Below, piece by piece: positions 41,091 to 64,000 of a stretch of 64,000 bases of DNA. The translations under genes were made by a program, and so were the position numbers. How positions within the stretch are numbered: position 1 is the stretch's first letter; every line of letters begins with the position of its first letter. Under the pieces are notes generated by a model. That model saw only the letters and a program-made list of their open reading frames with translations. It ran no database searches and was not told the DNA's origin. The stretch comes from a virus. Taxonomy: Duplodnaviria > Caudoviricetes. Location: positions 1 through 64,000 of the IMG/VR virus record IMGVR_UViG_3300020577_005688, one strand, 5' to 3'.

Positions 41091-41792
41091 GTGGGAAGCC
41101 TTTTCTATTCTTTCCAAGAGGCTGCGAACAGCCTTGGGTGCTCGAAGCGCACGATTCACAACTACATCAAACAGGGTTACCTGCGAAAGTCAAACCAAGA
41201 AGGGAAGGTAGTCCTTTTCAGGGAGGACGTCGAGCAGCTTGCCGCAGAGACGGGCGTAAACCTCCCACCGTTCAACCGGAAGAATTTCTTCTTGTTGTTG
41301 CGGAGAGTTGAGAAACTCGAACAGGACATGCTGGTGGCAAGGAGAAGACTGGACATTCAGGCTGACCCTCTGAGGCCCTCTGCACAGGAGGCGGCTCTAT
41401 TGATGAGAGAAGCGGAGCATGCGTTTGTTCGTGGAACGTGGTCAGAGCCAGAGATGGAGCAATGGGTGTCTGTCTTTGAGCGCCTCGATGAGACAGCCCT
41501 TGAGTCAATGAAGAAACATCTTGGGAGTCTCAATCCCTATGAACCCTTCTTCAAGCTCGTGATGGCCATGATGCAGAGTGTCGCTTCGATTGAAAACTTC
41601 GAAACATCTCTGCCTGCGCAGCTCATGCACAAGAAGTTGGATGAAGGACGTAGGAAGATGAGGGAGTGCATCTTCATGTGGCTCAAGGTCTCCTCGCCAC
41701 TCAATGCCGATGAGGTCGTTCAGTCTCTGGATACAGAGAAGGAAAAGCTCTTCAAGAAGCTCAAAGCAAATAAACCAAGTCCCACGGCATAA
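41091..41792 (+). CDS. MerR/excisionase-type HTH DNA-binding protein
   Basis: YSFQEAANSLGCSKRTIHNYIKQGYL; AGGAGG RBS. Confidence 0.85.
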   Translation: MGSLFYSFQEAANSLGCSKRTIHNYIKQGYLRKSNQEGKVVLFREDVEQLAAETGVNLPPFNRKNFFLLLRRVEKLEQDMLVARRRLDIQADPLRPSAQEAALLMREAEHAFVRGTWSEPEMEQWVSVFERLDETALESMKKHLGSLNPYEPFFKLVMAMMQSVASIENFETSLPAQLMHKKLDEGRRKMRECIFMWLKVSSPLNADEVVQSLDTEKEKLFKKLKANKPSPTA

Positions 41793-44160: not shown

Positions 44161-44472
44161 ATGAGTGAACTACCTCCACCGCTCGCCTGGCTTCCGGGCT
44201 TCGCAAACTCCCTATCTGGAGCTATTGATACTCCGGTCCAGATCGAATGTACACAGAGTGTAAATCCTTTGGTGTACATCGTGAAGTTCCGATTCGGGGA
44301 AAACGTCACTGGGAAACGTATGATGTTGGTGTGGAACCTCTACCAACAGTATGCCGCAAAAAATGACGCTGTCCCTCAAGGAAAGGTCGAATCAGAGGGA
44401 AAGACGCTTACGACCTCTATCATCATCAAAAGGAAAAGGGGTCTGCCAAGAAATGAGCATCCGCTGGCATAA
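44161..44472 (+). CDS. Hypothetical protein
   Basis: 103-aa ORF divergent from terL. Confidence 0.6.
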   Translation: MSELPPPLAWLPGFANSLSGAIDTPVQIECTQSVNPLVYIVKFRFGENVTGKRMMLVWNLYQQYAAKNDAVPQGKVESEGKTLTTSIIIKRKRGLPRNEHPLA

Positions 44473-44473
44473 G
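44466..44473 (+). promoter_or_regulatory. GGYATAAG motif (putative phage promoter)
   Basis: GGCATAAG overlapping the upstream stop, before RNase HII. Confidence 0.55.
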
Positions 44474-44494
44474 AAGTCAGAGGGGAAAACTTTC

Positions 44495-45100
44495 ATGCAC
44501 GAACAAGAGATTCAGGGAGGGTTGGATGAAGTTGGGTACGGCTCCCTTGCAGGACCCTTCATTGCAGTAGTTGCTGTGTTTCGGCAGAAAGACTTCACCT
44601 TCTTACCTCCCGGAGTAACAGACTCGAAGAAGCTAAGTCATAGCTCTCTGGAGGCTCTGTATGAACCCATCTGTGCTGCAGCTTCTGACATCGGTATCGG
44701 TCACGCCATGCCAGAAGAAATCGACACGATGGGTGTGTCCGTAGCTCTTCAGTTGACGTACCAGAGAGCTATTGAAGAACTCGTTGTACGTCCGACAACT
44801 CTCATCGTGGATGGGAACAAGCCCGTAAAGAGTTGGACCGGAAAGCAGATTGTGGAACCGAAGGCAGACCTCAATCACAAAGTAGTGTCTGCCGCCTCCA
44901 TCATCGCAAAGGTGTGGAGAGACAGACTGATGAATCAACTCTCGAAGAAGTTCCCAGAGTATCGATGGGACGCGAACAAGGGGTACGGTTCTGAGGAGCA
45001 CTTCGAGGCAATCAGGAAGAACGGGCTTGTTCTTCCGGGTCCAAACGGGAATGAATACATCCACAGAAAAGCCTATTGCAAAAGATTCCTCAACGACTGA
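44495..45100 (+). CDS. rnhB: Ribonuclease HII
   Basis: GLDEVGYGSLAGP, DSKKL, VDG, KAD, SAASIIAKV and NKGYG motifs. Confidence 0.95.
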   Translation: MHEQEIQGGLDEVGYGSLAGPFIAVVAVFRQKDFTFLPPGVTDSKKLSHSSLEALYEPICAAASDIGIGHAMPEEIDTMGVSVALQLTYQRAIEELVVRPTTLIVDGNKPVKSWTGKQIVEPKADLNHKVVSAASIIAKVWRDRLMNQLSKKFPEYRWDANKGYGSEEHFEAIRKNGLVLPGPNGNEYIHRKAYCKRFLND

Positions 45101-46578: not shown

Positions 46579-47374
46579 CAGGAGCGAGCATCTTGATGTC
46601 GGGGGGAGGGATCTGAGGGTGCTCCATTCGGAATCGCTCGAAGTTCTTCAAGATGTCCTTCAGAGCCATGTCCGAAGTTGAGAGGGCTTCGTGACAGTCA
46701 ACGATGGTCTTCCCAAGGACGCCGATAGCCTTGACCTTGTCCGGCCCAGTTCCAGGCTTCCTACTGACCTCTTCAATGGTGAAGTAGGCAATCTCCTGCG
46801 TCCTCTGAATCATCGTCTTTGAGTCGATTGCCTGTTGGAGCTGCAGGTGAAACATTGCGAGCTCTGGTGTTGCTTGGAGCATCGACATGTACCGTTCGTA
46901 CATGCCTGACCTTCCATACAAGAAGCGACCCCACTCATCCCACGTCAGAAGGTCGACATTCCAGAACATGTCATGGAAGGCACCCATGCCCTCTGCTGAG
47001 AGGTGCCATCCGTGTTTCTTGTTCAAGCGAAGAGCGATGGCTTTTCGATCGAGTCGTGCGAGAAGAGCTTGCTCGACATTCAGACGAACGAGAGGGTCGC
47101 TCAGAATCTTCCACGCTTGTCGTACACCATCGGTCGGGTGGAAGAACTCGAAGATACCGTGTTTTCGAAGGAAGTTCATCGAAGGACGGTGAGCTCGGTT
47201 TGTGTAATCAAACCCAGGAGGCTCGTCCTTCAACTCTTGCTTCAAGAAATCGAGGTACACCGTCTCAGGAGTGAGAAATCCCCAATCCTCCAGATTCTTC
47301 AAAATCTCTGGAGTCTTGATGTTCTCGTCCTTCACCATCAAGTACTTGATGAAGTGGTGTGCTGGATGTTTCAT
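46517..47374 (-). CDS. Helical hypothetical protein (possible small terminase-like)
   Basis: 285-aa coupled ORF; the function is a guess from proximity to terL. Confidence 0.6.
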   Translation of the reverse strand: MKHPAHHFIKYLMVKDENIKTPEILKNLEDWGFLTPETVYLDFLKQELKDEPPGFDYTNRAHRPSMNFLRKHGIFEFFHPTDGVRQAWKILSDPLVRLNVEQALLARLDRKAIALRLNKKHGWHLSAEGMGAFHDMFWNVDLLTWDEWGRFLYGRSGMYERYMSMLQATPELAMFHLQLQQAIDSKTMIQRTQEIAYFTIEEVSRKPGTGPDKVKAIGVLGKTIVDCHEALSTSDMALKDILKNFERFRMEHPQIPPPDIKMLAPGGNFTGSGVEEKQTEKAMGR

Positions 47375-48174
47375 GACAGGTTCGAGATCTGAAGAAGCTC
47401 TTGAAAGAAAGAGGGGAGACGCATTCCGAGCTTATTGAAATCTGAGCTCTTCTTGAATGCCTCCCATGCATTATTGATGTCTTGCATGTCCTTGGTATTT
47501 CCACCCCTATCTGGGTGATGCTTTGCAGCCTGCTCGCGATATTTCTTCTTTGCATCTGCCTTCGTTTTAACGTCTTTCAACCAATCGGGGGTCCTGACGT
47601 TCTGAGGAGGCTTTGGAGGAGGAGCATACCCTCCGGCATTCGAGGAGCCACGTTGATTTTGATAGTTCTGCCGAGCTTCCCGACTCTTCCGTTCGGTGTC
47701 TGCCCATTCCTTACCAAAATCCTGCCAACGACTTTTGAAGTCTTCCCAATCTTTGTCACTCTTCTCTTGGTGAGATTTCCACTTTGCCTGAGTCTCTGCT
47801 CTTCTTTTTTCGTACCTGAAATCGTCTGCTCTCCACTTCCTTCTCATCTTGATGCTGCTTCTTGTGAGATCTTTATCCATACCAGAGAAAGAGCCAATAC
47901 CATGGCCGAGGATACCTCCGGTTGCGGCGGCACTAATCACTGCGCGTCTCTGGTTTTTGAGTATTTTCTTCTTCTTTTTTTCAGGCAGCTTTTTGAAGTG
48001 CTCTGATTTTCTGATAGACCTCACACCTGCGTATGCAGAAGTCCCACCAGCAGCGGCCCCGATACCGGCTCCAACAAGTCCTCGACGAAGTTCGTTATTC
48101 GTCTTGAGGACTCTCTTGGCATGAGTAAAAGCGCCCTTCAGAGACCTTTTGAACGCTTCTTTTGTTTCTGACAT
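47371..48174 (-). CDS. Gly-zipper protein with C-terminal J-domain (HPD)
   Basis: GAGIGAAAGG and TGGILGHGIG helices; KKKYREQAAKHHPDRGG...QDINNAWE. Confidence 0.8.
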   Translation of the reverse strand: MSETKEAFKRSLKGAFTHAKRVLKTNNELRRGLVGAGIGAAAGGTSAYAGVRSIRKSEHFKKLPEKKKKKILKNQRRAVISAAATGGILGHGIGSFSGMDKDLTRSSIKMRRKWRADDFRYEKRRAETQAKWKSHQEKSDKDWEDFKSRWQDFGKEWADTERKSREARQNYQNQRGSSNAGGYAPPPKPPQNVRTPDWLKDVKTKADAKKKYREQAAKHHPDRGGNTKDMQDINNAWEAFKKSSDFNKLGMRLPSFFQELLQISNLS

Positions 48175-50841: not shown

Positions 50842-51945
50842 TCAAGCGGGACTTGCCAGAAGGGTTGTTGAAGTCATTGCAGGTGCCGGAGGTGGCACAA
50901 GAGGCGGGGTGGTGGGTTGTGGAGGACCGCCAGGAATTGCAAGGGCAGGGTTTGGGACAACAGTGTGAATATGAGTGCTCAACCACGTCAAGAGTGGGAT
51001 GGCGAGTGCAACTGGCTGAGGCGAGTTACCGACCAAGACTGTTGACCCCATTTGAATAGTTGGAGCACCTTTGATGGTGACCACTCCAGTAAGAGCTTGG
51101 ATGGTTACACCGGATTGCCCAGAGACTTCAACTGTACTCCCACCAGAAATCGTGACTTTTGAAGCGCTCTTCACCAAGACGTCCTGCTGCGCATCGATGG
51201 TGAACTTCCCTTTTACTGTCCAAAGAACATCTTTCTCCACCGTCCAGCTTACATCTCCATCCTTATTGAGAGTCAGAGAGATCTTCCGGGCTGCCCCAGA
51301 AGCACCTGACTCTTTGATAACCAGACTCAGGATAGTCTTTTGACCGCTCCCATGGGAACCTACTTGAAGTTCGGCGAGAGGCTTCTCATCTGAGGCTTTC
51401 TCTCTTGCTGAAATCTTCAGGGTCGTTGGGCGATTTCCATCTGTATCGGTTTCTGTTCGTTGAACAGTCCAATCCAGGTCCCCGCCGATTGTCTGGAGAG
51501 AGTAGTTCTCGCAGAAATCTTTGATGGTATTCGTCACAGGAAGAAAGAGCCTCTGACTCAGAGGGCCGCCACCAATCTGAACAACGCCTCCTCTCCGAAG
51601 AATCAGAAAATTCTCATCCCTCGTACCGAGGTAGATGTCACCTGGATTCAAGTCTGGTCTGCGAGATCTGAAATTGCCTTCCTCTGCAGCAGCAGCCCAT
51701 CCCAGTACAAAAGGACGATTGCCGTCAGATGGAAAGCAAATCCAACAGAGGCTCCCTACTTCCGGCATGAAGTGGATTCCCTCACCGTTTACAAAGTGAA
51801 GGTAAGGAGTGGACCACGTAATTCCAGTTTGTGGTTTCTTCGAGAACTGAGTCGTAACAGAGAGTGTGAAAGAGCTGATGTCTACATCAAGCACTCTTCC
51901 AGACTCAATGAATGCAGGGCTTGTTCCTTGGTGAGTGACAGCCAT
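50842..51945 (-). CDS. Baseplate central spike (gpV/gp5-like)
   Basis: OB-fold MPEVGS...PFVLG, beta-strand repeats, apical HxH (THIH). Confidence 0.8.
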   Translation of the reverse strand: MAVTHQGTSPAFIESGRVLDVDISSFTLSVTTQFSKKPQTGITWSTPYLHFVNGEGIHFMPEVGSLCWICFPSDGNRPFVLGWAAAAEEGNFRSRRPDLNPGDIYLGTRDENFLILRRGGVVQIGGGPLSQRLFLPVTNTIKDFCENYSLQTIGGDLDWTVQRTETDTDGNRPTTLKISAREKASDEKPLAELQVGSHGSGQKTILSLVIKESGASGAARKISLTLNKDGDVSWTVEKDVLWTVKGKFTIDAQQDVLVKSASKVTISGGSTVEVSGQSGVTIQALTGVVTIKGAPTIQMGSTVLVGNSPQPVALAIPLLTWLSTHIHTVVPNPALAIPGGPPQPTTPPLVPPPAPAMTSTTLLASPA

Positions 51946-51954
51946 CGTGCCTCC

Positions 51955-52629
51955 TCAAGGAGAGTTATACTGTTTAATGGTTTTTTGTTCTTGGAGGTCC
52001 GTCAGTCTTCTCCTTGCGTGTCTTGAGAGACGAGTACCCGACCCATATGGAATTCGAGCGGGCATTAGTGACGCTTCACCAATACCCTCTCTATAGTGCT
52101 TCATATGAGCCCTAACTGCCTCATTTCCGGGAGGGAGGGTCGCTAGACGATTGTGCTCCCGAAAAATAACATCTGGGCTTCTATGACCGTAATGGGCGGC
52201 TCCAATTCGTCCACGAACGGAAGATTCGTCAAGTTCGTGACCTTTAACAACTGCATGAAGCATCTTTCTTTGGTCCGCAGGGACCTTCGGAGCATTGCCG
52301 AGTCCTCCGAGAGTTGAGCTGTGCATTTGCTTTTGAATAGAACCACTGCCCGGAAAAATAGCGGGTCGGTCTCTGACGAGCTTCGAGACGGGCTGGCTCT
52401 CTACTGCCGATCGAACGTGCTCACCTGCACCCGGAGAAATCAAGTTGGCACTTCTAACGGCGTCACCAACGAGTCGACTTTTATTTGGGGAGGCAGAGAG
52501 GAATGGCTGTACTCGTGCAGACGCTTTTGGAAGCTGAATTCTCTTGGCAAGAGACAAAACCTTAGAGGCCTGATCAGCACCAAAAGCAATCTTTACTAGC
52601 TCATCAGAGAAAGACTCAAAGGAGATCAT
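51955..52629 (-). CDS. Basic protein with FSDELVKIA leader (putative capsid cargo)
   Basis: TAATG coupling to the RNAP stop; GHELDE/GH/EH residues in the C-terminal half. Confidence 0.75.
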   Translation of the reverse strand: MISFESFSDELVKIAFGADQASKVLSLAKRIQLPKASARVQPFLSASPNKSRLVGDAVRSANLISPGAGEHVRSAVESQPVSKLVRDRPAIFPGSGSIQKQMHSSTLGGLGNAPKVPADQRKMLHAVVKGHELDESSVRGRIGAAHYGHRSPDVIFREHNRLATLPPGNEAVRAHMKHYREGIGEASLMPARIPYGSGTRLSRHARRRLTDLQEQKTIKQYNSP

Positions 52630-55600
52630 TAGTAGTGGCCCTTTGGCTTTGAAGGATGGCCCTTCCCGAACTCTGCACCAAACGCGACACCTGGGATTGG
52701 GTGTTTTCCGTGGATGTCTGACTTCCATCCCTGAGATGCCGCCTGTTGCAGAGTACTGTGGAGCTCACGATAGTTGAGACGTGCCATCCAGTCTGACGTT
52801 CCGGTCAGCGGCAACTGAGAGATGCTCTTCAGGATAGGTTCGTGAGTAATTGGGCGCTTGTCCTTTGGAAGACCTCTGTTGTGTTCATCCACGATAGAGG
52901 TTGGGACGATGTCGCCGTGGAGGAAATCACTTGTTCCTGGGTCCTTTACCTTTGTGAGATTCGTCAAAGCTCGAACCACTACCTCAACGTTCCTCTTTCT
53001 AACTCCTTCCTTCTCGTACAGACCACCATACATCTCATTTGTGAGATGGTTTTGGACGGTGTGCATGTCTGTGAGTGGTAGGAGGTGATGAGGATTGATG
53101 AATCCGTGAGAGACTGGTGTTCCTTTCTTCACCTCATCCCCAACCTTCAGGTCTGTATTCACCAAGTCCTTTGGAACGAAGTGGCGCTCGTCTCCGATGA
53201 AAATATCGACGCCACCAACACTGTCCCTCTTGATGTTCGTAATCTTCCCAGAAGTGCGAGCAAGAGTGGCCGAGTTCTTCAACTTCGCTGGCATGTTGAG
53301 AGCGTTACGAAGCCGAGTCAACCGGTCTACTGACATTGCTCCTCGACCAGTAGCAACACCACCAGTGTGGAACGCGTCCATCGCCATCTGAACTGCAGGC
53401 TCCGAGAGCGCCTGTCCAGCGAGAACACCGATGTTCGTTCCGACATCGTGGAGTTTCCCACTCTCATTCAATCCGAAGCACTTCGCACAGATTCCTTCTC
53501 CGTGCTGGCACTTCAGTGGAGAACGCACCAAGACCTTGTCGATCTTTGAGTTCTTGAGTCGGTTGACGACTTCTGGCGTGACAAGTGTTCCAGCTTTGAT
53601 TTCATCTCCTTCCTTCAAACGATAAGACTTCGAGAGGAATCGGTCATGGATGTCTTTGTGGACAACATCCATCAGAACTCCATGGCTCGTCTTACAGTCT
53701 GGAGATGAAACAATCGTAGCAATCGTTGAGTTGATGATGTCCTTGGAGACAACACCAGGCTCAGACGTTCCAAGAACACGCTGCAGCGTTCCTTTTCGAG
53801 CTCCATGCTGGGCGAGCCAGTAGTCACCGATGTCCAGACCCTCTGCGTAGTTCTTGAGAATGGGGGTTGGGATGATGTTGTTTTGAGAGTCTTGAACAAG
53901 CATCGGGGCAGCAATCATCTGGCGAAGTTGCTCTGCCTTTCCACGTGCTCCTGACACGACCATGTCTGCAAGTCGATTCTGGCCAGCAGGCAACTTTGCG
54001 GCGTGCTCCAACTGTTCGGTCGCCTTTTGGTAGATGTCGATGATGCGTTTGTTCTGTTCATCTTTGTCTTTGACTGTGTTCTTGATTGCAGTCACTTGCT
54101 TCTGCGCATCACCAAGAATCTTGTGGCGCTGAGGAAGGGTGGCAAGGTCCTTGAGTCCAAAAGAGAAACCGAGCTTGTACGCCCACTCATTGCCGAGGTC
54201 TTTGAGTTGGTCGACTACTGAAGCGAAGTCTCTTGTGTGATTCTTTGCGAGGGGCGTGATGATTTGAGAGTTCAGAGACTTCTTATCGATAGTCCAGAGC
54301 GGATTGTGGAGAATGTCCTTGTTCAGATGGAAGTCGCGAGGCATCCTCGACTCAAGCAGAAGACGACCGAAGGTAGTCTCCTTCCCACCAATCTTCACGA
54401 CGTCGGTAGGCTTCACCTCTCCTCGGTCGACTGCCTTGTTGAGCTCCAGAGGTGTCTGGAACGACTTAGAGGTTTTCTCGCCCCATCGCGAGATGAGGTG
54501 CAGACCGAGCATTGAATCTTGCGTCGGTGCATACATGACTGCACCAGTAGTGGGAGAGAAGAGGTTCTTCGATGGGAACATCTTCTTTGCTTCCTCGACA
54601 GCTTCTCTTGTCAGAGGAACAGTACCTGCCATTGTATTGTGGACGATGACACCGCCAAATACGGCAAAAACATGGCTCTCGTCATCAACTTCGATGTCGA
54701 TCATCCGATCGTCATACGGCACTTCTTCGATGGTCTTGACTTCAAAACCGCGTGCGCTTTGTGATGAACGAGAATCCTTGCGCATGGTCTCATACTCCTC
54801 ACGAGCCTGACGCAACAGATCTCCTTTCTTGCCGGGGATCCGGTAGTCGAGAAGTTTAATGGCTTCTTTACCAAACGACAGAATGTAGCAAGGTCCGCAA
54901 GCATGGTCCCTGTCTCGGACAGAGAAAGGCAGTCCAAGCATATTCGCAATCAGAGCCATATCATCTCTCAAGGTTTTACTCTTTGACCACGTTCGAACAA
55001 GCCAACTTCCAGAACGAGTCACTTCGACAGATCCGTCCGATTGAATATACCCAGCGAGCATACCCTTCAAAAATTCCTCGCCCCTATACATGAGCGGGCC
55101 CATCACTGCCTTGCCTGTGCAGTAACGACCACAGAACGCAAGGAACTGCCTCGCCAGACCCACATCCGAGATCTGAAAATAACCGTGGTGAGAATCGGTG
55201 ACGTGGACGTTGAACTCTCTCTTCCACAGACCGATGAGGTACTCACGCTCAATAACAGGCTTGCAGGCGATCGAGATTCGTCCACCTCCTTGAGGAGGTG
55301 GACGAACTTCTGCTGATCCGTCACCAAGGAAGTTACCGAAGATGACACCATTTTCGTAAGAGTACGTCTCACTAGAGAACGAGGGTTCGATGCGCTGATG
55401 ATCGAGTTCAGTTCCAATCTTCATATCACCGGGCTTCATTTCCCTACGCCCGACCATCAGTGAATGGTCTTCCGAAGCAATGAACGAGAGACCATTCTTG
55501 AGAGTGACTCGGAACTTCTTCTTATTCTCGACCTTGTGGAACGAGATGTTCTTGATCGGACGCCAGCCGTTGTAGGTGTAGGCTTCGATGTTCTTGACAG

Positions 55601-58600
55601 CAGAGACCCAATTCCCATCGCCTGCACCGAGAACTTCGATCAGTCTTCGACCAGTGACTTGCTGAACTGCGCCACTGAAACGGAGCGGAATCGGGGTGTC
55701 CAAGTCGATAGAGTCCCCGTCGAAGTCGGCGTTGTACCCACCAGTCACGAGAGGGTGAATCTGAATTGCCTTTCCCTCAATGAGCTTTGGTGTGAAAGCC
55801 ATGACAGAGAACTTGTGGAGAGCCGGGTCTCGCTTCAAGAGAAGAGGACGGTCTCGTACAACACGCTCAAGAGCGTCGAACGCAGACTTAGAACCTTTAC
55901 GCATCTCCTGCTGAGCTTCGAGAGGCTTGAAGCCTGTCTTTCCGAGTTCAGCAACAACGAAGGGCTTGTACAACTCCATTGCGGCACCCTTCGGGATGCC
56001 GACCTCATCAATCCCAAGACGAGGCTCTGGAACAATCGTTGAGCGAATTGAGAGGTTCTGACGCCTCTTCACGAGTCTGGATTGGAAATACGCATCCTTC
56101 GGTTGCTCTCCATCGCCGCCACCGATGATGTCGAGGATGCCCTTCAAGGCGCGTTTGGCACCTGCAGGAGAGTCCATGTCATAACCGACAGAACCTCCCA
56201 CTGATTGAAGTGCCTTCACACTCTCGTACAACTGTGAGCGCAGAGGCATTCTGACTTGCTCTGGGAATACCTTCGGGTCGGCCTCCACAAGCTTGTTATT
56301 CAGAATCGCAATGTTCTTGTACAGACCGTTCAAAGAAGATGTTTGAAGATCTCCCTTTGGAGTTACTGTTGCTGGTCGGAAAGCTGGAGGGAGCACAGGA
56401 ACGTACTTCATGATGTACGCTTCGTGCGGTTTCAGTCCTGCTTCGTCGACTGCAAGAAGGTACTTCATCTTCTTGTTCGCTCTGTCGAGGTCCGCTCCAG
56501 TGAGAATCGGGAGACGCTCCTTGAGCGTCTTAATCTCGGCCTTGACGTCAACCTTCTTCAGGGCTTCAAGAACTGCCTCACCACCAGTCTTACCGTGGAG
56601 CTTCGTCTCTCCATTCATGACTGACTCAAACTCCTTCATCTTCATTCCAAGAAGAGAAGGGATCGGTCCAGGGCGATGATTCGAACCCACGAAGATGGGA
56701 TTGGGGATTGGCTCGGTCAACTTGATGAATCCCCACTTGGAGCCACTCAAGCCTCCAGTTGCGACCGGGTCAAAGAGGCCTCCCTTCTCCTCCTTCAAGT
56801 CCTTTGCCCTGAGAAGGAGGTGTCCCTTCGTGATTTCTCCACGAGCCCCACCCGCCATCTCAACGACTTTCTTGTCTGTGAGCGGAGTCAGTTGAAGAAT
56901 TGACCCCTTCTTCTCCACATTGACGCCGAGTCCGTTCAACAATCCAACAAACTTCTGGTAGCTGAATGGAGCTTTTGGAGGAGGAGGCTCGTATCCTTCT
57001 TGAATCATGTTCCAGAAGGTAGAGTCCTGCATGTCGGACTTGTACGTCGCCATTTCACGAATGTTGTGGCGAGCGTTGTGCGCCAAGAGAGAATAGAGAT
57101 CGAGGGCACCGATACCCTGACCTCCTCGCTCTCCACCTTTCGTAGGAGCTCTATCGATGTCGTAAGTAAGAGGACGGCCATTGATGTCTGTTCCTCCTCC
57201 TCGAACTGTGAGCTTCTTCTCGACTTGGTGCTTGAGTTTGAGAAGGTGTTGAGGACCAACGAGGACGGACCCAAGAACCTTGCTCGGATTCATAGGGTCG
57301 AACACGCTCTCCTCATCAGAGATACCGTGCTTCTTCAATTCTTGGAGGACCTTTTCTCGGTTGTCTGAGTTTGGGCCTTCGAAGTTATTGACGATGTACG
57401 TCTTCCCTGTCTTCTCTGCAATCTTACCAGCTGCAGTCTCAAGTACCTGACCGACGTTGATTCTCGTAGGTACGCCAGTCGGGTTCAGAAGAACTTCGAG
57501 AGGACGCTTTTCCCCCTTCTCGTCCTTCGTGAAAGGCATCTCATGGTCGGGGAGAATCATCGTCACGATTCCCTTGTTTCCGTGACGACCGGAGAGCTTG
57601 TCTCCGATAACAACAGGCTCGACTGTCTTTACGTAGACTTTTGCACCTCTGCCCGAGGGGTCTTTGACAATCTTGACTACCTCACCCTGGTGGTCTTCGT
57701 CCCAAACAAGTGACTTATCCTTGTAAGGTTGGAATGCTCGCTTTCCGAGAGCAGCAAGGGCACTTCCCTGCCTTGAGGCGAGGTTCTTCCCAACTGCAGC
57801 AATCAACACCTGGCCTGGGTTTACCTTCGACCCAACGCGGATGATGCCGTCATCGTCCAACATCCCGAGCTGTTCTTTGGTCAGTTGATTGGATCGAGTG
57901 GCAGCGAACGCAACGAACTTATTCTTCGAGATGACGTCGTTGTCTGGGTCAAACTCCACAGACTTCTTGTGGAGGTGCTCTGAGCTCAGTTTCTTAGAAG
58001 CGGTCTCAGAAATAACAATACCGTCTTCGTAGTTGTAACCCTTGTACGGGATGTACCCCACTCGGAGATTTGAACCGAGCGCGAGAGCTCCTCCCTTTGT
58101 GAAGTTCGAGTCCGCGATAACTTGGCCCTGAGAGACCTTGTCGCCGACCTTTACGACGGCCTCAGAGTGCATCATTCCCTTTGGGTCGTTGAGGGGGAAG
58201 TGATTGTACAGATGTACTTGGTGGTTCTTCTTTCCGTCATTGATGACGATGTGGTCGTCTTTGACTGTCTTCACCGTTCCAGAGATGGGGGCTCGATGTG
58301 AGCTGAACCCACCCAGGACTTTCTCGAAAGTCATTGAAGGGTCGGCGTGATCTGTCTTCGATTGAACGAGAGGAGCTTCTCGATACTTCAGACTGATGGC
58401 TTGCTCCATCTGCTTATCTGCCATCGAGACTCTGTTGCCTTGGTTCGATGGGAGGAAAGGAATGAGGTTCGATGCCATGTCGAACATGCCCTTCGATGAG
58501 GGCATAACAAAGCCAGCTTCCGAGAACGGCCGAACTTCAATCGACCCTCCAGGGAGCTTTACTTTCACCATGTTCGAGATTGGGACTGGCTTTCCCTTCA

Positions 58601-59969
58601 CCCATCGAACTTGGTCTGGAAGGACTGCTGTGACGTCATGGAACTTAGGAGCTGTCATGTACTGAATTCGATTGCCCTTCAAATCGAACACAGGCGTCTC
58701 AAGTTCCTTGCCGTTCTTTCGAGCACCCATGCCGAGGTGGAGCGTGATGCCGGTCCTCTCAGATTCCGGGGTGTGCATCGGATCCAGGAATCCAAAGTGG
58801 CTTGAGTTTACGACTCTCATTTCGTCGGTCAGGGAGTGGTCCTTCTTGATACCTCCCAAGTCCGAAGCCATCAGGGTGGTCTTCCTGTGGCCCGACATCA
58901 TCTGGATTGGATTGGTCTGGTCCGGTCGTTCAGTGAGAGAACCTCCCTTCGTAAAGAACTCACGAATTGGCCGGGCAAACAGATCGGCTGAAATGACCTC
59001 GGATACGGAGGTCTTCTCCTTCAGGTCAATCGTGTTCTTTAGCTTCCCTTTGATTGTCTTTGAGGCGCGTTCAATCTTCTCTGGAAGGAAGTCCTCGACT
59101 GATACAATCTCCTTGAAGGCAAGAGAGTCACGGTCATCTGGCTGAAGCGTTCCTCTTGAGACGCCGAGAATCTTGTTGGCAGCAATCTGAAGGACCTGTC
59201 CGTCAACCTTGGTTGCCTCTCTTCCGAGGGTAATCTTCGTCGTGTCTGGGCGGAGGACGGTCTTGTCAAAGAAGTCGTAGACGTACTTCCCGTAGCCCGC
59301 AACATCTGTGGGTTCCGGAACGTTCTCAAAAGAGGTCTTCTTGAAGAACGTTTGAAGTGTCTTGAGAGTCTTCTCTTCATTCTTGGGCTTGTTCGCAAGG
59401 AAGATCTCCTTGCCCCAATCCTTCTCCATCTGGTCATCTGAAACGCCCATCGACTTCAGAATGGGGTAGAGCGGAATGTGAGCTTGACCCTTCTTCAGGA
59501 AGAAGCGCTTCTTCTCTCGTTCGAGCTTGATGGAGAAACGATTACCAGCGGGGCCTCGAACGAGGTTGAACTCAGATTCGAGATCTCCGTTGTCTTGGAT
59601 TCGAGCGTAGACGCCAGACTTCAAACGAAACAAATGGTCGACCTGATACTCATTTCCATCGACAATGAATCCAAATCGATTGGTGAGTTTTGGAAGACGA
59701 GCCAACGTCATTGTCTTCGAATCGACGACCTTGCCTGTGGCCTTGTCGATGAGAGAGACGTTTGCCTTGACTGGAACACCCCAGGTGCGATCCAGGTCTT
59801 TCGCCTGTGCCTGAGATTGGATGTCTTCTGGATTCAGCTTGTCGTCGACCCAGACTTTATCCAGCTGTAGCCGACGAGACTTACCCTCATAGGGAAAGTA
59901 AGCAGAGATTGAAGAGACGATGTTGTTCTTCAAAACATCGAAGGAACCTTCGGGAGTCAGGTTTTCCAC
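52629..59969 (-). CDS. rpoBC: Fused beta-beta' multisubunit DNA-directed RNA polymerase (intein-containing)
   Basis: Beta motifs TPE, GYNYEDGI and GDKLSGRHGNKG; beta' motifs RDPALH, NADFDGD, SGARG, HGARKG and FHTGG, all in one ORF; GTG start after GAGG. Confidence 0.95.
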   Translation of the reverse strand: MENLTPEGSFDVLKNNIVSSISAYFPYEGKSRRLQLDKVWVDDKLNPEDIQSQAQAKDLDRTWGVPVKANVSLIDKATGKVVDSKTMTLARLPKLTNRFGFIVDGNEYQVDHLFRLKSGVYARIQDNGDLESEFNLVRGPAGNRFSIKLEREKKRFFLKKGQAHIPLYPILKSMGVSDDQMEKDWGKEIFLANKPKNEEKTLKTLQTFFKKTSFENVPEPTDVAGYGKYVYDFFDKTVLRPDTTKITLGREATKVDGQVLQIAANKILGVSRGTLQPDDRDSLAFKEIVSVEDFLPEKIERASKTIKGKLKNTIDLKEKTSVSEVISADLFARPIREFFTKGGSLTERPDQTNPIQMMSGHRKTTLMASDLGGIKKDHSLTDEMRVVNSSHFGFLDPMHTPESERTGITLHLGMGARKNGKELETPVFDLKGNRIQYMTAPKFHDVTAVLPDQVRWVKGKPVPISNMVKVKLPGGSIEVRPFSEAGFVMPSSKGMFDMASNLIPFLPSNQGNRVSMADKQMEQAISLKYREAPLVQSKTDHADPSMTFEKVLGGFSSHRAPISGTVKTVKDDHIVINDGKKNHQVHLYNHFPLNDPKGMMHSEAVVKVGDKVSQGQVIADSNFTKGGALALGSNLRVGYIPYKGYNYEDGIVISETASKKLSSEHLHKKSVEFDPDNDVISKNKFVAFAATRSNQLTKEQLGMLDDDGIIRVGSKVNPGQVLIAAVGKNLASRQGSALAALGKRAFQPYKDKSLVWDEDHQGEVVKIVKDPSGRGAKVYVKTVEPVVIGDKLSGRHGNKGIVTMILPDHEMPFTKDEKGEKRPLEVLLNPTGVPTRINVGQVLETAAGKIAEKTGKTYIVNNFEGPNSDNREKVLQELKKHGISDEESVFDPMNPSKVLGSVLVGPQHLLKLKHQVEKKLTVRGGGTDINGRPLTYDIDRAPTKGGERGGQGIGALDLYSLLAHNARHNIREMATYKSDMQDSTFWNMIQEGYEPPPPKAPFSYQKFVGLLNGLGVNVEKKGSILQLTPLTDKKVVEMAGGARGEITKGHLLLRAKDLKEEKGGLFDPVATGGLSGSKWGFIKLTEPIPNPIFVGSNHRPGPIPSLLGMKMKEFESVMNGETKLHGKTGGEAVLEALKKVDVKAEIKTLKERLPILTGADLDRANKKMKYLLAVDEAGLKPHEAYIMKYVPVLPPAFRPATVTPKGDLQTSSLNGLYKNIAILNNKLVEADPKVFPEQVRMPLRSQLYESVKALQSVGGSVGYDMDSPAGAKRALKGILDIIGGGDGEQPKDAYFQSRLVKRRQNLSIRSTIVPEPRLGIDEVGIPKGAAMELYKPFVVAELGKTGFKPLEAQQEMRKGSKSAFDALERVVRDRPLLLKRDPALHKFSVMAFTPKLIEGKAIQIHPLVTGGYNADFDGDSIDLDTPIPLRFSGAVQQVTGRRLIEVLGAGDGNWVSAVKNIEAYTYNGWRPIKNISFHKVENKKKFRVTLKNGLSFIASEDHSLMVGRREMKPGDMKIGTELDHQRIEPSFSSETYSYENGVIFGNFLGDGSAEVRPPPQGGGRISIACKPVIEREYLIGLWKREFNVHVTDSHHGYFQISDVGLARQFLAFCGRYCTGKAVMGPLMYRGEEFLKGMLAGYIQSDGSVEVTRSGSWLVRTWSKSKTLRDDMALIANMLGLPFSVRDRDHACGPCYILSFGKEAIKLLDYRIPGKKGDLLRQAREEYETMRKDSRSSQSARGFEVKTIEEVPYDDRMIDIEVDDESHVFAVFGGVIVHNTMAGTVPLTREAVEEAKKMFPSKNLFSPTTGAVMYAPTQDSMLGLHLISRWGEKTSKSFQTPLELNKAVDRGEVKPTDVVKIGGKETTFGRLLLESRMPRDFHLNKDILHNPLWTIDKKSLNSQIITPLAKNHTRDFASVVDQLKDLGNEWAYKLGFSFGLKDLATLPQRHKILGDAQKQVTAIKNTVKDKDEQNKRIIDIYQKATEQLEHAAKLPAGQNRLADMVVSGARGKAEQLRQMIAAPMLVQDSQNNIIPTPILKNYAEGLDIGDYWLAQHGARKGTLQRVLGTSEPGVVSKDIINSTIATIVSSPDCKTSHGVLMDVVHKDIHDRFLSKSYRLKEGDEIKAGTLVTPEVVNRLKNSKIDKVLVRSPLKCQHGEGICAKCFGLNESGKLHDVGTNIGVLAGQALSEPAVQMAMDAFHTGGVATGRGAMSVDRLTRLRNALNMPAKLKNSATLARTSGKITNIKRDSVGGVDIFIGDERHFVPKDLVNTDLKVGDEVKKGTPVSHGFINPHHLLPLTDMHTVQNHLTNEMYGGLYEKEGVRKRNVEVVVRALTNLTKVKDPGTSDFLHGDIVPTSIVDEHNRGLPKDKRPITHEPILKSISQLPLTGTSDWMARLNYRELHSTLQQAASQGWKSDIHGKHPIPGVAFGAEFGKGHPSKPKGHY
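54636..55712 (-). mobile_element. Intein (359 aa) with LAGLIDADG homing endonuclease
   Basis: Starts with Ser right after NADFDGD; SEDH block B; FLGDGS and AGYIQSDGS LAGLIDADG motifs; ends HN followed by Thr. Confidence 0.92.
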
Positions 59970-60108
59970 GTCTTCCTCTTTCGGCCACACTGCGGAGTGG
60001 TTTATGGCGTACCCGGCTCTACCCCACCGCAGAGAGGGTCATCGAGCCTTAGCATCCCACATTACATGCTTCTCGAAAGGAAGGTCAACAAAGTCGACGA
60101 AGTGTCGG

Positions 60109-60116
60109 GGTATAAG
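60109..60116 (+). promoter_or_regulatory. GGYATAAG motif (putative phage promoter)
   Basis: GGTATAAG upstream of the + strand Zn-finger cluster. Confidence 0.55.
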
Positions 60117-60360
60117 AATTTGTCAGCATCACGCTGGCCTTCAAAGCCGGAGGAGTTGATTGGGGGAGAAGTCTCAGCTCCAAATGTTCCAGGAAGACCT
60201 GACAAATTCGATTCTTGGTCAGATTCTTTACTGGTTAGAGAAAGAAAAACCCAAAAAGAAGAAAGGGAACGTCAAGTGTTGAGGCTGTTCTTCGCTGCGT
60301 TCACTCTGAGTTTCATCATGTACCTCAATTCAAGATTTCAAATAGCTCTGAGTGGTCTCA

Positions 60361-60756
60361 ATGAGCGACGAGAGTGAATTCAGGACAGCCTTTTGCCCCC
60401 TCCTCTTCGAAGCAAATGGAGGGGCTGCCAGCAGCGCCGTGATGAACGTTGTGGGAAAGTGCAACAAACCCTACGACTGCCTTGAATGTCCTCTGATGCA
60501 AGAGTGGATCAAACACCTCTCTGCTCAGGGATTTACGATGGAGTGGGAGTGTGACCAGTGCATCAAAAACTCATTCACACTCGATCTCGATAACCACGTC
60601 GAGAGAGCGGTCCCAGGGTTCTTCCAAGGAAGTCGGTTCAGAGGATTCCCAGACTCCTACGAACTGAGCGACCCAGGACGTGTTCTCGATGGATGTACGA
60701 CCTGCGGATTTGGATCTCCAATTCTTCAACTCGTCATCCGGAGAGTCTCAAAGTGA
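60361..60756 (+). CDS. Cys-rich hypothetical protein
   Basis: Several CxxC pairs; coupled to the next ORF. Confidence 0.7.
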   Translation: MSDESEFRTAFCPLLFEANGGAASSAVMNVVGKCNKPYDCLECPLMQEWIKHLSAQGFTMEWECDQCIKNSFTLDLDNHVERAVPGFFQGSRFRGFPDSYELSDPGRVLDGCTTCGFGSPILQLVIRRVSK

Positions 60757-60980
60757 CTCTGTCTTGCTGCGTATGCGGTCGGGACTTCACTGATGAAGAC
60801 CTCATCATCAGGCTCACAGCTTACAGACACGTCATCACAGAGGATGATGGGCTGGGGTTCAAATTGATGAGGTCCAAATTCGAAGACCAGACCGAGGAAA
60901 GGTTCTCACACATGTCATGTGCCGCACAGGAAGGTTCGATGTTCCTGATTGGGGCGGGCGGAGATATGGAAGATGTTTAA
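60753..60980 (+). CDS. Small CxxC...HxxC Zn-finger protein
   Basis: GTGA overlap; CCVC and HMSC. Confidence 0.6.
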   Translation: MTLSCCVCGRDFTDEDLIIRLTAYRHVITEDDGLGFKLMRSKFEDQTEERFSHMSCAAQEGSMFLIGAGGDMEDV

Positions 60981-61374
60981 GTACGATGACTCACTCCGTC
61001 AGATGACGTTCCAACAACCCGAACCCCAAGAACAACAACCAGAGTACAAGCCTCCGAGTGCAAAGGTCTGTCCTTGGTGTAGTAAGCCAATCTGGCTAGG
61101 GGATCGAGCAGTAACGATCGACCACGGAATCCTCGGCCGAGGGAAGAAAAGTGGTCAGCCGGTTGTTGTCGAAGACCGACTGACTTCCGGAGAAGCAACA
61201 CTCCACGAGCTCTGCTCCATTGCGTGGCTCTCGACAAATGTCGTCGATTCAAGCGACGAAGTCGAAGGAGTCATCGACACTATTACAGCCGACATCTTCG
61301 GCATCTCATACTCAGAGCTGGCATCAGAGGAAACCCTCTGTGCAGTGTGTGAGGAAAAGATCGATGGGGATTGA
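60973..61374 (+). CDS. CxxC...HxxC Zn-finger protein
   Basis: CPWC, HELC and CAVC. Confidence 0.7.
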   Translation: MFKYDDSLRQMTFQQPEPQEQQPEYKPPSAKVCPWCSKPIWLGDRAVTIDHGILGRGKKSGQPVVVEDRLTSGEATLHELCSIAWLSTNVVDSSDEVEGVIDTITADIFGISYSELASEETLCAVCEEKIDGD

Positions 61375-61591
61375 CCTCAGGGAACCAATCTCCAGAGAAG
61401 AGATGGAGAGGTTTGCCGAAGACACCATGGCTTTGTGGAGGACTCAGTACATGCTCTTCCTCAAGGCCCAGGCTCAAGGAGCTCCACAAGGACTCATTGT
61501 GGAGATGGCGGATGTGTCAGAGCTCTTCAGACAGACGCACGAGAGACTCAAGAACTTGGTGCAGTTCTTTCCGTCAGAGAACGACTCGTAG
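61364..61591 (+). CDS. Hypothetical protein
   Basis: GAGG RBS; hairpin plus T-run after the stop. Confidence 0.65.
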   Translation: MGIDLREPISREEMERFAEDTMALWRTQYMLFLKAQAQGAPQGLIVEMADVSELFRQTHERLKNLVQFFPSENDS

Positions 61592-61609
61592 TTTGAGTCG
61601 TTTTTTAGC

Positions 61610-62200
61610 TTACAGAATTCCCAACTCAGCCATCATGGCGTGGGCAATTGCCTGAGGAGGGTCTCCAGCATAGACCTGGAACACTCTATGAGTCAGCTCG
61701 TGCTTGAGAGCCGTTTTGTTCAAGTCAGAGTTCCATCCAACTTGAATGAACATTCCATCCTGAAGCCCGGCAACAAACTGCTCGACCTTTCCGGGTCGTG
61801 TATCCAGAGACCACTTCTCTTCTCGAAACAGAATGGCACACCCCTGAAGAGATTTAATTGCGTCTGGAAAACCTGCAGCGAGGATGGCCAAGAGCTCGGT
61901 CAACTGTTCTTGAAACTCCTCAGGCTTCACTGCGAACTTTTCAGAGGTCCACCCAACAACGACTCCATCGCAGATGAACTTGTACTGTTGAAACAGTTTC
62001 CTTCTCTGAAGGAACATCAATCCAGTGAGTGAGAAGAACCCAGCAACAACTGCCCACAGGATAATCCAACCTGGAAGAGGGATTGGGGTATCTTGTGGAG
62101 TCAGATGAGCTCCAATAGCACTGGCAAGAGCGGCGAAACTGATTCCAATTGGAAGCAGGTCACTCCAAACAAACACCCTCACCTTGACTGGAGAAATCAC
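61610..62200 (-). CDS. Membrane-anchored HExxH metallopeptidase-like protein
   Basis: Two N-terminal hydrophobic helices; LKHELTH. Confidence 0.65.
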   Translation of the reverse strand: MISPVKVRVFVWSDLLPIGISFAALASAIGAHLTPQDTPIPLPGWIILWAVVAGFFSLTGLMFLQRRKLFQQYKFICDGVVVGWTSEKFAVKPEEFQEQLTELLAILAAGFPDAIKSLQGCAILFREEKWSLDTRPGKVEQFVAGLQDGMFIQVGWNSDLNKTALKHELTHRVFQVYAGDPPQAIAHAMMAELGIL

Positions 62201-64000
62201 TTAGACACCCGTTGAGGAAGGACGACGAGTTGGTTTGAGAGTCGGCTGAGGACTCTGCACTGGATTAAGTGGGTTCTCCTGCGAGCCCTTCTCTGACTCA
62301 ATGATTTGAAGGACAAGACTGTAGAGCTGAGGGCTCGTCATCTGCATTCGGTTCATCTCAGCCATTCGGGTGCCTTCGTCCATCTTCTGAAGAGTCGTTG
62401 CTGCTCGACGGGCGAGATACAGAACGTTCATTCCTCCACCTCCCTGAGTGGAGGCGTTCAGAGGACTCATCAGAGTAGACGGGATTCCCTCAGCAGGAGC
62501 TTGTTGAGCGTTCTCGGCAGAGACGGTTGCACCCTGAGGCATTCCTGGATCGACTTGCTGTCCATCCATCATCTCACCCTCAGGACCAGTGGGAGCTCCT
62601 GTTCCTGGGCCCTCTTGACCGGGGATTGGTGCCTCTGGAGGCGGAGGTGCCCCTGGAGGAGCTCCTCCTGCAACGCCTGCCCCTCCTTGAGCTGCAACTG
62701 CTTCCTGGGGTGCCCCAGGTGCTCCGCCTTGGAGAGCTTGAGAGACCATCTCAGTTGCCATCTTCTGATAGCGAGCCTGCACCATCTGCATCTCGCCCTG
62801 AATGGTCGCCTGAGCAACTTGCATCTTGCGATTGAGTTCAATCTGTCTATCGAGCTCACCCTTGATACGGGCATCCTCAGTAGCCGGGTCGAAGTCAACT
62901 TCCTGGAGCAGCGTCTGATTCGAAATCTTCTGTCCCTGATTGAGCTGGAAGAAGAACGCAGAACGTTGCAGGTCGTCTGCCATCTTGAATCGACGCATGT
63001 GCGCCTGAACTGCAGGCCACCCCATGAATGCAGCGATGCGCTTGATTGTGAACTGATTCAACATCAAGTCATGGTCTGTCCGATACCCAAGGAACATGTT
63101 CTCCAGCATCCTCATGGAGACGTTGCTTCCTGAGTACTGCATGCCACCAAAGACGAACTCCTGAGGCACCCCCATTCCAGCCACGATTTGCTTCGACCAG
63201 ACTTCCATCTCCTGGTGAAGCATCAAGGCTCGGCCGTCCCCGCCGATGGTCTGACTTCCGATTGGAAGAGGAAGAATCGGAATGTAGTTAGGGTCGTACT
63301 TCCACTTCGCTACTTCACCTTCAATGCGACTCTTCCACGAGTCGAGAGAAATTGTCGTGTATGGGTCCGAAGAGCTACTGTTTCCTTGAGGGAAGAGAAC
63401 TCGCATCGGAATGATGTGTTCTTGCGCAATTGCCTCCTGCGCCTTCCTCAAGATTTGAAGATAGAACGTGTCCTTCAAGACAGGCATGATCAGAGGCATT
63501 CCCCAGCCAGAATCCTTCTGACTGATGATTGGCCTTCTGAAGACGAAAATGTTGTCGTCTGCGAAGCGAACATACTTCCCGCGCTTCATTGCCTCGATGA
63601 AAGTGTCTGGGATGGTATCGAGAACGCTCTTCTTCCCAAGCACCACATCGTTGCGAACCTGGAGAGGGAGCTCGAACGTGTAGACCGGCTTCGCGCCTGC
63701 AAATGCAGGGTCCACGTTCACATACTCAGGATTCCATCTCATCAAACGAATGCCGTTCAAGTCTCTCTTGTAGAAATCTTGAACCTTCGCTGGTCCGACA
63801 GTGCGGCACTTCGGACACTCGATGATGTAGTCGAGGTTCCTCCACTTGTAGTGGGTCTTCGTTGCCTTTTCTTTGTGCTTACAGTTCTGGCAGATGAGGA
63901 ACTTGTCGAATGGAAAATGAATCGTGACGAAGCAGATTCCATACGTGTAGTAATCGAGACCAATCTCAATCTGAAACGGGCGGTACCGAAGAACTCCGCC
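62201..64000 (-). CDS. Portal protein (5'-truncated by the window edge)
   Basis: Frame open to base 64000; DYYTYG.CF, GWGMP and AGMGVP portal-like motifs; Pro/Gly/Gln-rich C-terminus. Confidence 0.8.
   Translation of the reverse strand, partial: GGVLRYRPFQIEIGLDYYTYGICFVTIHFPFDKFLICQNCKHKEKATKTHYKWRNLDYIIECPKCRTVGPAKVQDFYKRDLNGIRLMRWNPEYVNVDPAFAGAKPVYTFELPLQVRNDVVLGKKSVLDTIPDTFIEAMKRGKYVRFADDNIFVFRRPIISQKDSGWGMPLIMPVLKDTFYLQILRKAQEAIAQEHIIPMRVLFPQGNSSSSDPYTTISLDSWKSRIEGEVAKWKYDPNYIPILPLPIGSQTIGGDGRALMLHQEMEVWSKQIVAGMGVPQEFVFGGMQYSGSNVSMRMLENMFLGYRTDHDLMLNQFTIKRIAAFMGWPAVQAHMRRFKMADDLQRSAFFFQLNQGQKISNQTLLQEVDFDPATEDARIKGELDRQIELNRKMQVAQATIQGEMQMVQARYQKMATEMVSQALQGGAPGAPQEAVAAQGGAGVAGGAPPGAPPPPEAPIPGQEGPGTGAPTGPEGEMMDGQQVDPGMPQGATVSAENAQQAPAEGIPSTLMSPLNASTQGGGGMNVLYLARRAATTLQKMDEGTRMAEMNRMQMTSPQLYSLVLQIIESEKGSQENPLNPVQSPQPTLKPTRRPSSTGV

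Follow-up and report, generated by a model that had tools for sequence, protein, structure and literature searches.

The DNA described here is the first 64 kb (64,000 nucleotides, hereafter the window) of a 141,350-base phage contig, IMG/VR virus record IMGVR_UViG_3300020577_005688, whose completeness was estimated by CheckV at 75%; its source is an uncultured ~200-kb freshwater or wastewater phage. Sequence comparison confirmed that in one minus-strand gene of the window beta and beta', the two large subunits of an RNA polymerase (RNAP) of the bacterial type, are encoded as a single chain interrupted by an intein. The best explanation of all the data was that the intein-spliced single-chain core works with a phage sigma factor, is made late, packaged into the virion and ejected, and we hold this to be reasonably probable. 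The gene and its parts were delimited as follows.

52629..59969, minus strand: RNAP gene, single-chain beta-beta'; 2446 codons from the conserved GTG at 59969, the frame being open from the GTG at 59990.
56904..59969, minus strand: beta module, amino acids ~8-1029, from the Pfam domains Rpb2_2, Rpb2_3 and Rpb2_6 and alignment to Salmonella and Staphylococcus beta.
55713..56903, minus strand: beta' N-extein, amino acids 1030-1426, ending in NADFDGD.
54636..55712, minus strand: intein of 359 amino acids, residues 1427-1785, from empty-site alleles in 13 relatives, Pfam and motifs.
52629..54635, minus strand: beta' C-extein, amino acids 1786-2453.

The open reading frame (ORF) extends over 52629..59990 and holds 2453 codons from GTG 59990, and all residue numbers of the RNAP refer to this version (P0001). 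In a relative of 88% identity (L010), the first start codon past the upstream stop was the equivalent of GTG 59969. The same GTG is preceded by GAGGA and was taken as the start in the public gene call (P0002, 2446 amino acids). Since the start of L010 and the public gene call both coincide with GTG 59969, the coordinates 52629-59969 assigned by a first-pass annotation of the window were right. The annotation had also placed both large subunits in one ORF of ~2090 amino acids after intein removal, and a length of 2087 amino acids was computed from the conserved start.

The Pfam beta domains were located at amino acids 155-933 and the beta' domains Rpb1_1 to Rpb1_5 at amino acids 1172-2351. Rpb2_6 scored 203.6 bits against a cut-off of 23.4, which showed that the beta double-psi barrel is present, and the lysine motif of this barrel (RHGNKG type) reads GDKLSGRHGNKG at amino acids 796-807. 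The catalytic NADFDGD was found at amino acids 1420-1426 (nucleotides 55713..55733), the bridge helix motif HGARKG at 2062-2067 and the trigger loop motif FHTGG at 2207-2211, the trigger loop having no SI3 insertion. The second zinc site comprises Cys 2099 and CQHGEGICAKC at 2161-2171. The beta' barrel, bridge helix, trigger loop and second zinc site were all conserved, and NADFDGD is whole once the intein is removed.

The alignment with beta and beta' from Salmonella and Staphylococcus revealed a junction with no linker, where the end of beta (...GLGVNVEKKG) leads directly into beta' (SILQLTPLTD...), the first ~24 residues of beta' being missing in the fused protein. The clamp helices were conserved (amino acids ~1215-1265). 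The N-terminal zinc-binding domain of beta' (Cys70/72/85/88 in E. coli) was replaced by a gap of ~33 amino acids both in the fused family and in the related RNAPs of Salmonella phage Arash and Vibrio phage D69. Rifampicin cluster I was poorly conserved, and the positions of F514 and S531 were among those that differed; judged from this alignment, the phage enzyme is probably insensitive to rifampicin.

The borders of the intein at amino acids 1427-1785 were fixed by the 13 intein-free relatives, in which the empty site is seen: NADFDGD is followed directly by TMAG (or TMS, TMAA or TMAV), while the window reads NADFDGD-S...VHN-TMAG. The intein begins with Ser1 (S1427) and ends with HN (1784-1785), the +1 residue being Thr (T1786). 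Block B was recognized as SEDH (1506-1509), and two LAGLIDADG motifs as FLGDGS (1554-1559) and IQSDGS (1649-1654). The Pfam families LAGLIDADG_3 and Intein_splicing were matched at amino acids 1454-1785, the former above its cut-off (25 bits vs 22.5) and the latter below it (21.6 vs 35.8). By its sequence features the insert is a class-1 intein with a LAGLIDADG homing endonuclease. Because it directly follows the Mg-binding aspartate triad of NADFDGD, the unspliced chain should be inactive, and protein splicing through Ser1, the terminal Asn and Thr+1 would restore NADFDGD-TMAG and release the 2087-residue enzyme.

Judged from sequence comparison, the fusion is real and ancestral. All of the 17 close IMG/VR loci contained one ORF of 2079-2109 amino acids, or of about 3000 amino acids with two inserts. 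In 80 of 80 further IMG/VR loci the frame remained open for 2046 codons or more, except where the contig end cuts it, and pattern-based scans of IMG/VR returned the fused family only; a scan of genome contigs yielded mostly Proteobacteria. A search of 5.8 billion proteins yielded no fewer than 120 clusters (90% identity). Nearly all had lengths of about 2080-2130 amino acids or, with inteins, greater lengths, and the longest contigs of these clusters measured about 195-220 kb. An exhaustive phmmer search was performed with a 997-residue query crossing the junction. The best 150 representatives (50% identity clusters) were of fused length (up to 4739 amino acids) or were pieces, and the junction-spanning query was covered by single matches within one protein at 38-64% identity.

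A near-identical sequence was recovered from 17 sequencing runs of about 9 studies, which sampled river water, freshwater, wastewater and sludge. In four runs of four studies, one run possibly being the window's own source, contigs spanned the junction of beta and beta', the two borders of the intein and, at the end of the gene, the TAATG overlap, with no or almost no differences. The intein was present in all four of these runs; an intein-less allele was not seen as a joint in any of them, but contigs drop rare variants, so this says nothing on its absence. With hundreds of independent fused sequences, a junction bridged in four studies and every catalytic motif intact, it is hardly conceivable that the fusion arose from misassembly or a frame error, or that the gene is a pseudogene in decay.

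Insertions were frequent across the family. At least one insertion of 120 amino acids or more was counted in 91 of 250 family proteins, and the maximum was five insertions in one RNAP, with a length of 4739 amino acids. In extein coordinates, the DFDGD site accounted for 57 cases, the trigger-loop region (~1840-1860) for 24, beta ~800-840 for 21 and beta ~400-420 for 14, several other sites being rarer. Two loci (L019, 9983-18871, and L020, 7616-16654) contained an insert of ~500 amino acids at the DFDGD site that starts with Gln and ends with Ser-Asn, which are non-canonical intein termini, and also a canonical Cys...Asn|Thr insert in beta after NPSGVP. This dense intein load makes the gene useful for studies of intein homing in phage populations.

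The phylogenetic position of the enzyme was determined from concatenated beta and beta' sequences of 62 taxa, trimmed to 1995 columns and analysed with FastTree (LG+G). The taxa were 35 members of the fused family, Arash, D69, Cobetia phage Carin-5, Yersinia phage YerA41, 22 bacteria (Proteobacteria, Myxococcota, Desulfobacterota, Nitrospirota, Acidobacteriota, Verrucomicrobiota and a Firmicute) and the Rpb1 of a nucleocytoplasmic large DNA virus as the only root. Bacterial sampling was limited, and the set was without true mReC, phiKZ/AR9 and archaeal sequences; the substitution model was simple, and long-branch attraction is possible. The fused family was monophyletic (support 0.997) and was joined by the Arash/D69 clade (0.98-0.99). 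All phage enzymes, including those of Carin-5 and YerA41, grouped together (1.0), and Bacteria were monophyletic without the phage clade (1.0). A second alignment at two trimming levels led to the same result. Nesting within bacterial RpoBC, for which the first-pass annotation had advised a phylogeny, was thus not seen.

Sequence searches agreed with this placement. The top 60 matches in the PDB were all bacterial beta' chains, with near-equal scores across phyla (331-358 bits). Bacterial NCBIfam models scored far above archaeal ones, yet far below their own cut-offs, as was the case for the rpoC (534.7 vs 963.5) and rpoB (381 vs 896) equivalogs, both scored on relative L010. Based on the trees, the PDB matches and the NCBIfam scores, it was concluded that the enzyme is of the bacterial type by sequence, but lies outside every sampled bacterial lineage. 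The bacterial character of the PDB matches, together with the best NCBIfam model being NF007172, the equivalog of bacterial fused beta/beta', could suggest a recently captured rpoBC fusion of the Helicobacter/Wolbachia type, or phage-borne host genes. Such an origin is very improbable: NF007172 was matched with 571.8 bits against a cut-off of 5372, the rpoB and rpoC cut-offs were missed as well, no bacterial phylum stood out among the PDB scores, Bacteria excluded the phage clade in both alignments, and the divergence within the family (1.8-1.9 substitutions per site) exceeded that between Staphylococcus and Salmonella (1.0).

Further, the possible partners of the enzyme were sought. Exactly one beta barrel was found in each of five complete relatives (196-210 kb, four with terminal repeats). 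No match to alpha (PF01000, PF01193) or omega (PF01192) was obtained in the window's contig or in four relatives, three of them complete, while the controls of this search were positive in 14 of 14 genomes. Profile searches agreed with the earlier observation that no alpha, omega or sigma gene lies within the 64-kb window, and the proposed independence of alpha held at the gene level. A reading without sigma did not hold, since a conserved sigma70-family protein is encoded on the same contig.

112814..113656 of the contig, minus strand, outside the window: sigma70-family gene, 280 amino acids, from Sigma70_r3, orthology and synteny.

The Sigma70_r3 domain of this protein scored 32.3 bits against a cut-off of 25.3, and matches to regions 2 and 4 were weak but correctly ordered. 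Coverage of the NCBIfam SigB/F/G model extended over positions 11-225 of 227, but the score of 29.8 bits fell far short of the cut-off. Orthologues were present in 9 of 9 genomes checked. Its orthologue in Arash is gp10 (31% identity, E 2.7e-22), and synteny is shared, Arash gp6 and gp8 corresponding to the neighbouring g128 and g127.

A complex of the sigma protein with the N-terminal part of beta' (amino acids 1040-1426) was modeled. The interface score (ipSAE, interaction prediction score from aligned errors) was 0.76, compared with 0.01 for the best control; of 80 solved complexes 58 attained this value, as did 2 of 110 mismatched pairs. At least 66% of the contacts were common to the model runs, and the predicted local distance difference test (pLDDT) of the partner was at least 72. 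In the modeled interface, the clamp helices (amino acids 1207-1257) contacted sigma residues 65-108 and 140-150 (region 2). Since region 2 and the clamp helices are a textbook pair, the result may only mirror solved holoenzymes, and such a model cannot separate the phage core from the host core as the partner of sigma.

The sigma protein also carries an N-terminal extension of ~50 amino acids with a conserved (E/D)W(V)LxK(I/L)(A/S)AA motif that resembles a DELEKIA leader; the Arash orthologue is without it. A 233-residue ORF at 41091..41792 with a faint Sigma70_r4 match was considered as a second sigma and rejected, being an HTH_17 protein. The second sigma of Arash, gp196, had no BLASTP match in the window's incomplete contig. 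No T7-like RNAP (PF00940) was found either, but this search had no positive control and is uninformative.

The RNAP gene was found among virion genes, with the following features around it.

62201..64000, continuing to contig position 64297, minus strand: portal gene, 30% identity to the Arash portal gp204 (E 1.7e-81).
60352..61374, plus strand: divergent small Cys-rich genes of 134, 95 and 141 amino acids, between the portal block and the RNAP gene.
51955..52629, minus strand: 224-amino-acid gene whose ATG overlaps the RNAP stop (TAATG at 52629), absent from 9 relatives.
50842..51945, minus strand: baseplate central spike gene (gpV/gp5/VgrG-like), from Pfam, PHROG and Foldseek.

On the RNAP strand the order is g072, g071, portal, g069, divergent region, RNAP, spike, g059 and g057. 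The succession of portal, divergent small genes, RNAP and spike was retained in 9 relatives whose RNAPs are 55-88% identical. These relatives have one to three of the small genes, and the 134-residue one was kept in 9 of 9. Because the divergent region with its opposite-strand genes separates the RNAP gene from the portal block, the RNAP gene heads its own block. Therefore, the earlier placement inside the virion operon stood as regards linkage to virion genes (the portal block and the spike), but not as regards an internal position.

The spike, which the first-pass annotation had placed after the RNAP, was recovered beyond the 224-residue gene. Its Pfam match to Phage_base_V (E 2.8e-4) fell just below the cut-off, and its PHROG family was that of a baseplate assembly protein. 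The pLDDT of its model was low (59), and the significant Foldseek matches in the PDB were all central spikes, VgrG or gpV. The stop codon of the RNAP gene, TAA, shares TAATG with the ATG of the 224-residue gene, which starts MISFESFSDELVKIA. Translational coupling to a gene with a cargo leader, as first described, is consistent with this overlap in the window; however, the gene is an ORFan present only in this phage among the 10 compared, and the spike directly follows the RNAP in the 9 relatives. The RNAP stop overlapped the next ATG (TAATG or TGATG) in 4 of 10 relatives, and a spacer of 0-3 nucleotides was found in 3 more of the 10. Searches of PHROGs, Pfam and NCBIfam gave no function for the 224-residue gene, g059 (884 amino acids), g057 and g069.

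The N-terminal SFSDELVKIA of the 224-residue protein matches a leader common to g042, g071, g073 and g126 of the same contig. Whether the N-terminus of the RNAP itself, SFDVLKNNI, is a degenerate DELEKIA leader was also considered, and this idea was rejected, as there is no extension and the segment aligns to the conserved start of bacterial beta.

The closest known enzymes are those of Arash (Gp206 and Gp216) and the Vibrio phages D69, D181 and D148, which form the sister clade of the fused family. In Arash and D69, as in the fused family, beta is joined to the N-terminal part of beta', the zinc-binding domain of beta' is missing and the order is portal, small ORF, RNAP; in Arash the orthologous sigma gene also lies in the structural block. 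Unlike in the fused family, beta' is cut ~85 amino acids past the catalytic motif and its remainder is a separate gene of 606-609 amino acids, the motif reads AADYDGD and the bridge helix has diverged. The distance to the separate gene is 4.8 kb and 9 genes in Arash (L004, 130093-141261) and 0.6 kb in D69 (L005). In D181 and D148 a homing endonuclease is annotated in the matched region. The publication on Arash makes no remark on the fusion of beta with the N-terminal part of beta' (PMC10585845).

Deep-branching mReC phage RNAPs were described from metagenomes (Weinheimer & Aylward 2020, PMC7481178), and the first-pass annotation had pointed to this lineage. The mReC, Carin-5 and YerA41 enzymes, like the fused family, are bacterial-like beta and beta' of tailed phages outside the cellular clades; they are compact, about 1900-2000 amino acids in total. 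In every mReC entry consulted in the supplementary tables, beta and beta' are separate proteins of 900-1521 amino acids, some contigs having two sets, and the non-mReC table is likewise without a fused entry (PMC7481178). The main text of the same study mentions fusion for crAssphage only, and none of the six sample numbers of our relatives that were looked up was among the mReC contigs (PMC7481178). The link to mReC thus held for branching outside the cellular clades, whereas the fused family differs in its single ORF and, as far as these tables extend, is not in the mReC lists. By its published definition, the mReC label does not suit the fused family; in our tree, the cultured two-gene enzymes of Carin-5 and YerA41 served as putative proxies for mReC. 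Carin-5 (L226) differs from the fused family by keeping the beta' zinc-binding domain and by having its RNAP genes in the replication module, where the trio sigma, beta' and beta adjoins the topoisomerase, dCMP deaminase and DNA polymerase genes. Both of its RNAP genes are annotated as "subunit beta", the first being beta' with the zinc-binding domain.

The fused RpoBC of Helicobacter and Wolbachia (NF007172, NF011417) have the same order, beta then beta' in one chain; they are cellular proteins of ~2840-2890 amino acids that work with alpha2 and omega, compared with 2087 amino acids for the phage protein. The virion RNAPs of crAss-like phages (gp66 type) and N4 are very large single polypeptides that are packaged, ejected and transcribe early genes. 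The crAss enzyme is kin to RNAi-type polymerases and the N4 enzyme is T7-like. To our knowledge, no sequence similarity to beta or beta' is detectable in the crAss enzyme, and we know of no sigma70-family factor used by either. The RNAPs of phiKZ and AR9 also are multisubunit-type phage enzymes that work without alpha or omega, and one form is packaged and injected, which makes transcription independent of the host (PMC7598289). Their design is the opposite: beta and beta' are divided among 4-5 polypeptides, the enzyme sets are two, and there is no sigma70-family factor. They are far more diverged, and none was among the top 60 PDB matches of the fused RNAP. The moraphages are a different lineage without RNAP (PMC12619734).

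We proposed that one polypeptide would serve as the catalytic core of a bacterial-type multisubunit RNAP and as the sole RNAP of the phage. The covalent link between beta and beta' would take the place of the alpha dimer as assembly platform, and promoters would probably be recognized by the divergent sigma70-family protein bound to the clamp helices, as in the modeled complex. The enzyme would probably be made late with the virion proteins, because its gene heads a block leading into baseplate and head genes and is coupled to the spike in the relatives. Core and sigma would then probably be packaged and ejected with the DNA, as synteny and a distant cultured relative suggest. The ejected enzyme would begin host-independent, probably rifampicin-insensitive early transcription, and newly made enzyme would serve the later phases.

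Packaging of the RNAP is probable by analogy, based on synteny and on the proteomics of Arash. In mass spectrometry of Arash virions, Gp206 (beta with the N-terminal part of beta') gave the most spectra, 3516 (PMC10585845), and Gp216 and the sigma Gp10 were also detected (PMC10585845). Several points weigh against packaging and the mechanism built on it. Relative to bacterial beta, no N-terminal extension was found in the alignment of the RNAP, nor was a DELEKIA-type leader. For the Arash virions a sucrose gradient was the sole purification, and 116 proteins were detected in them, including ribonucleotide reductases, RNA ligases and helicases (PMC10585845), and the authors allow for carry-over of abundant proteins (PMC10585845). 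The Arash enzyme is only ~31% identical to the present one and has the separate gene for the C-terminal part of beta', while the fully fused family is known from sequence alone. In Carin-5, the nearest phage with a two-gene RNAP, the genes lie in the replication module and not among virion genes. Host alpha or omega may be used, and the phage sigma could redirect the host core instead, like many phage sigmas. The gene also occurred in three wastewater runs labeled metatranscriptomic, but these may contain DNA and were not used as evidence of expression; its occurrence in RNA libraries does not show that it is transcribed.

Several of these points would suit an RNAP that is not a virion protein at all, but is made after infection and reads middle or late genes with the phage sigma, while the host RNAP reads the early genes. 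The position beside virion genes would then be genome layout only. The missing leader and extension, the obvious non-structural enzymes that contaminate the Arash virion proteome and the sigma-beta'-beta trio beside the DNA-replication genes of Carin-5 all favor such an enzyme. It accounts less well for the tight or overlapping coupling to the spike and the place after the portal block, both kept over 55-88% identity, and for the portal-RNAP order seen also in Arash and D69. In Arash particles no protein gave more spectra than Gp206, and the orthologue of sigma, located in the structural block, was detected with it. Moreover, if the enzyme came from a late operon alone, its expression cycle could begin only with the host RNAP reading this operon. 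We therefore consider a non-virion enzyme, and with it a position due to layout alone, unlikely, though deserving serious attention. Packaging and ejection of the single-chain core with the phage sigma was preferred. The stronger form of this proposal, that beta-beta' and sigma make up a complete two-polypeptide holoenzyme without alpha or omega, which is loaded into the capsid, ejected and serves as the sole RNAP of a very large family of ~200-kb phages, is tentative, and its chances seem slightly short of even.

A full beta-beta' fusion paired with a sigma factor was not found described in the literature searched, which was incomplete and included a 2026 jumbo-phage review. A 2020 review, a 2021 comparative study and the 2026 review describe only split enzymes without sigma. 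The full fusion would add to the known multisubunit RNAPs of phages, which are fragmented (phiKZ, AR9) or encoded by two genes (mReC). It is readily alignable to bacterial RNAP and is represented by hundreds of sequence clusters, and it occurs in samples of river, wastewater and sludge. It also bears on the old question of how beta and beta' assemble without an alpha dimer, and could serve structural work and in vitro or orthogonal transcription as a compact bacterial-type holoenzyme of two genes that is probably insensitive to rifampicin. If packaged, it would be a fourth independent route to virion-delivered transcription after N4, phiKZ and crAss-like phages. If the two-polypeptide holoenzyme is true, it would be the simplest natural transcription machine of the cellular type and the architectural opposite of the phiKZ enzymes.

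Two elements were observed in the region upstream of the RNAP gene.

60015..60048, minus strand: conserved two-stem hairpin in the RNAP 5' leader, about 25-55 nucleotides upstream of the start codon.
60109..60116, plus strand: GGTATAAG motif in the divergent intergenic region, pointing to the small genes and away from the RNAP gene.

The hairpin was obtained with RNAalifold from 8 relatives and has 9 pairs, 5 of them with compensatory changes; no Rfam match was found for it, and it may be an RNA element or an operator. The GGYATAAG motif occurs 9 times in the window, all on the plus strand (2599, 3360, 4579, 4968, 5948, 8150, 41786, 44466 and 60109), against 0.69 expected, and the copy at 60109 was conserved in 8 relatives. 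It is a candidate promoter element. Sigma70-type promoters and intrinsic terminators gave no more sites in 51800..62300 than in shuffled sequence. A search by k-mer enrichment revealed no late promoter common to the regions upstream of minus-strand genes, and was hampered by a spurious ORF call at 59997..60377. Directly after GGTATAAG, at 60116..60226 on the plus strand, a weak tRNA-Sec-like Rfam match was recorded (23.4 bits vs a cut-off of 47), which is probably due to chance; ARAGORN found no tRNA in the window. Elsewhere, the block of the RNAP and spike genes includes a protein with a C-terminal J-domain (47371..48174, minus strand; DnaJ, E 2e-5), and an RNase HII gene (44351..45100, plus strand) adjoins the large terminase gene.

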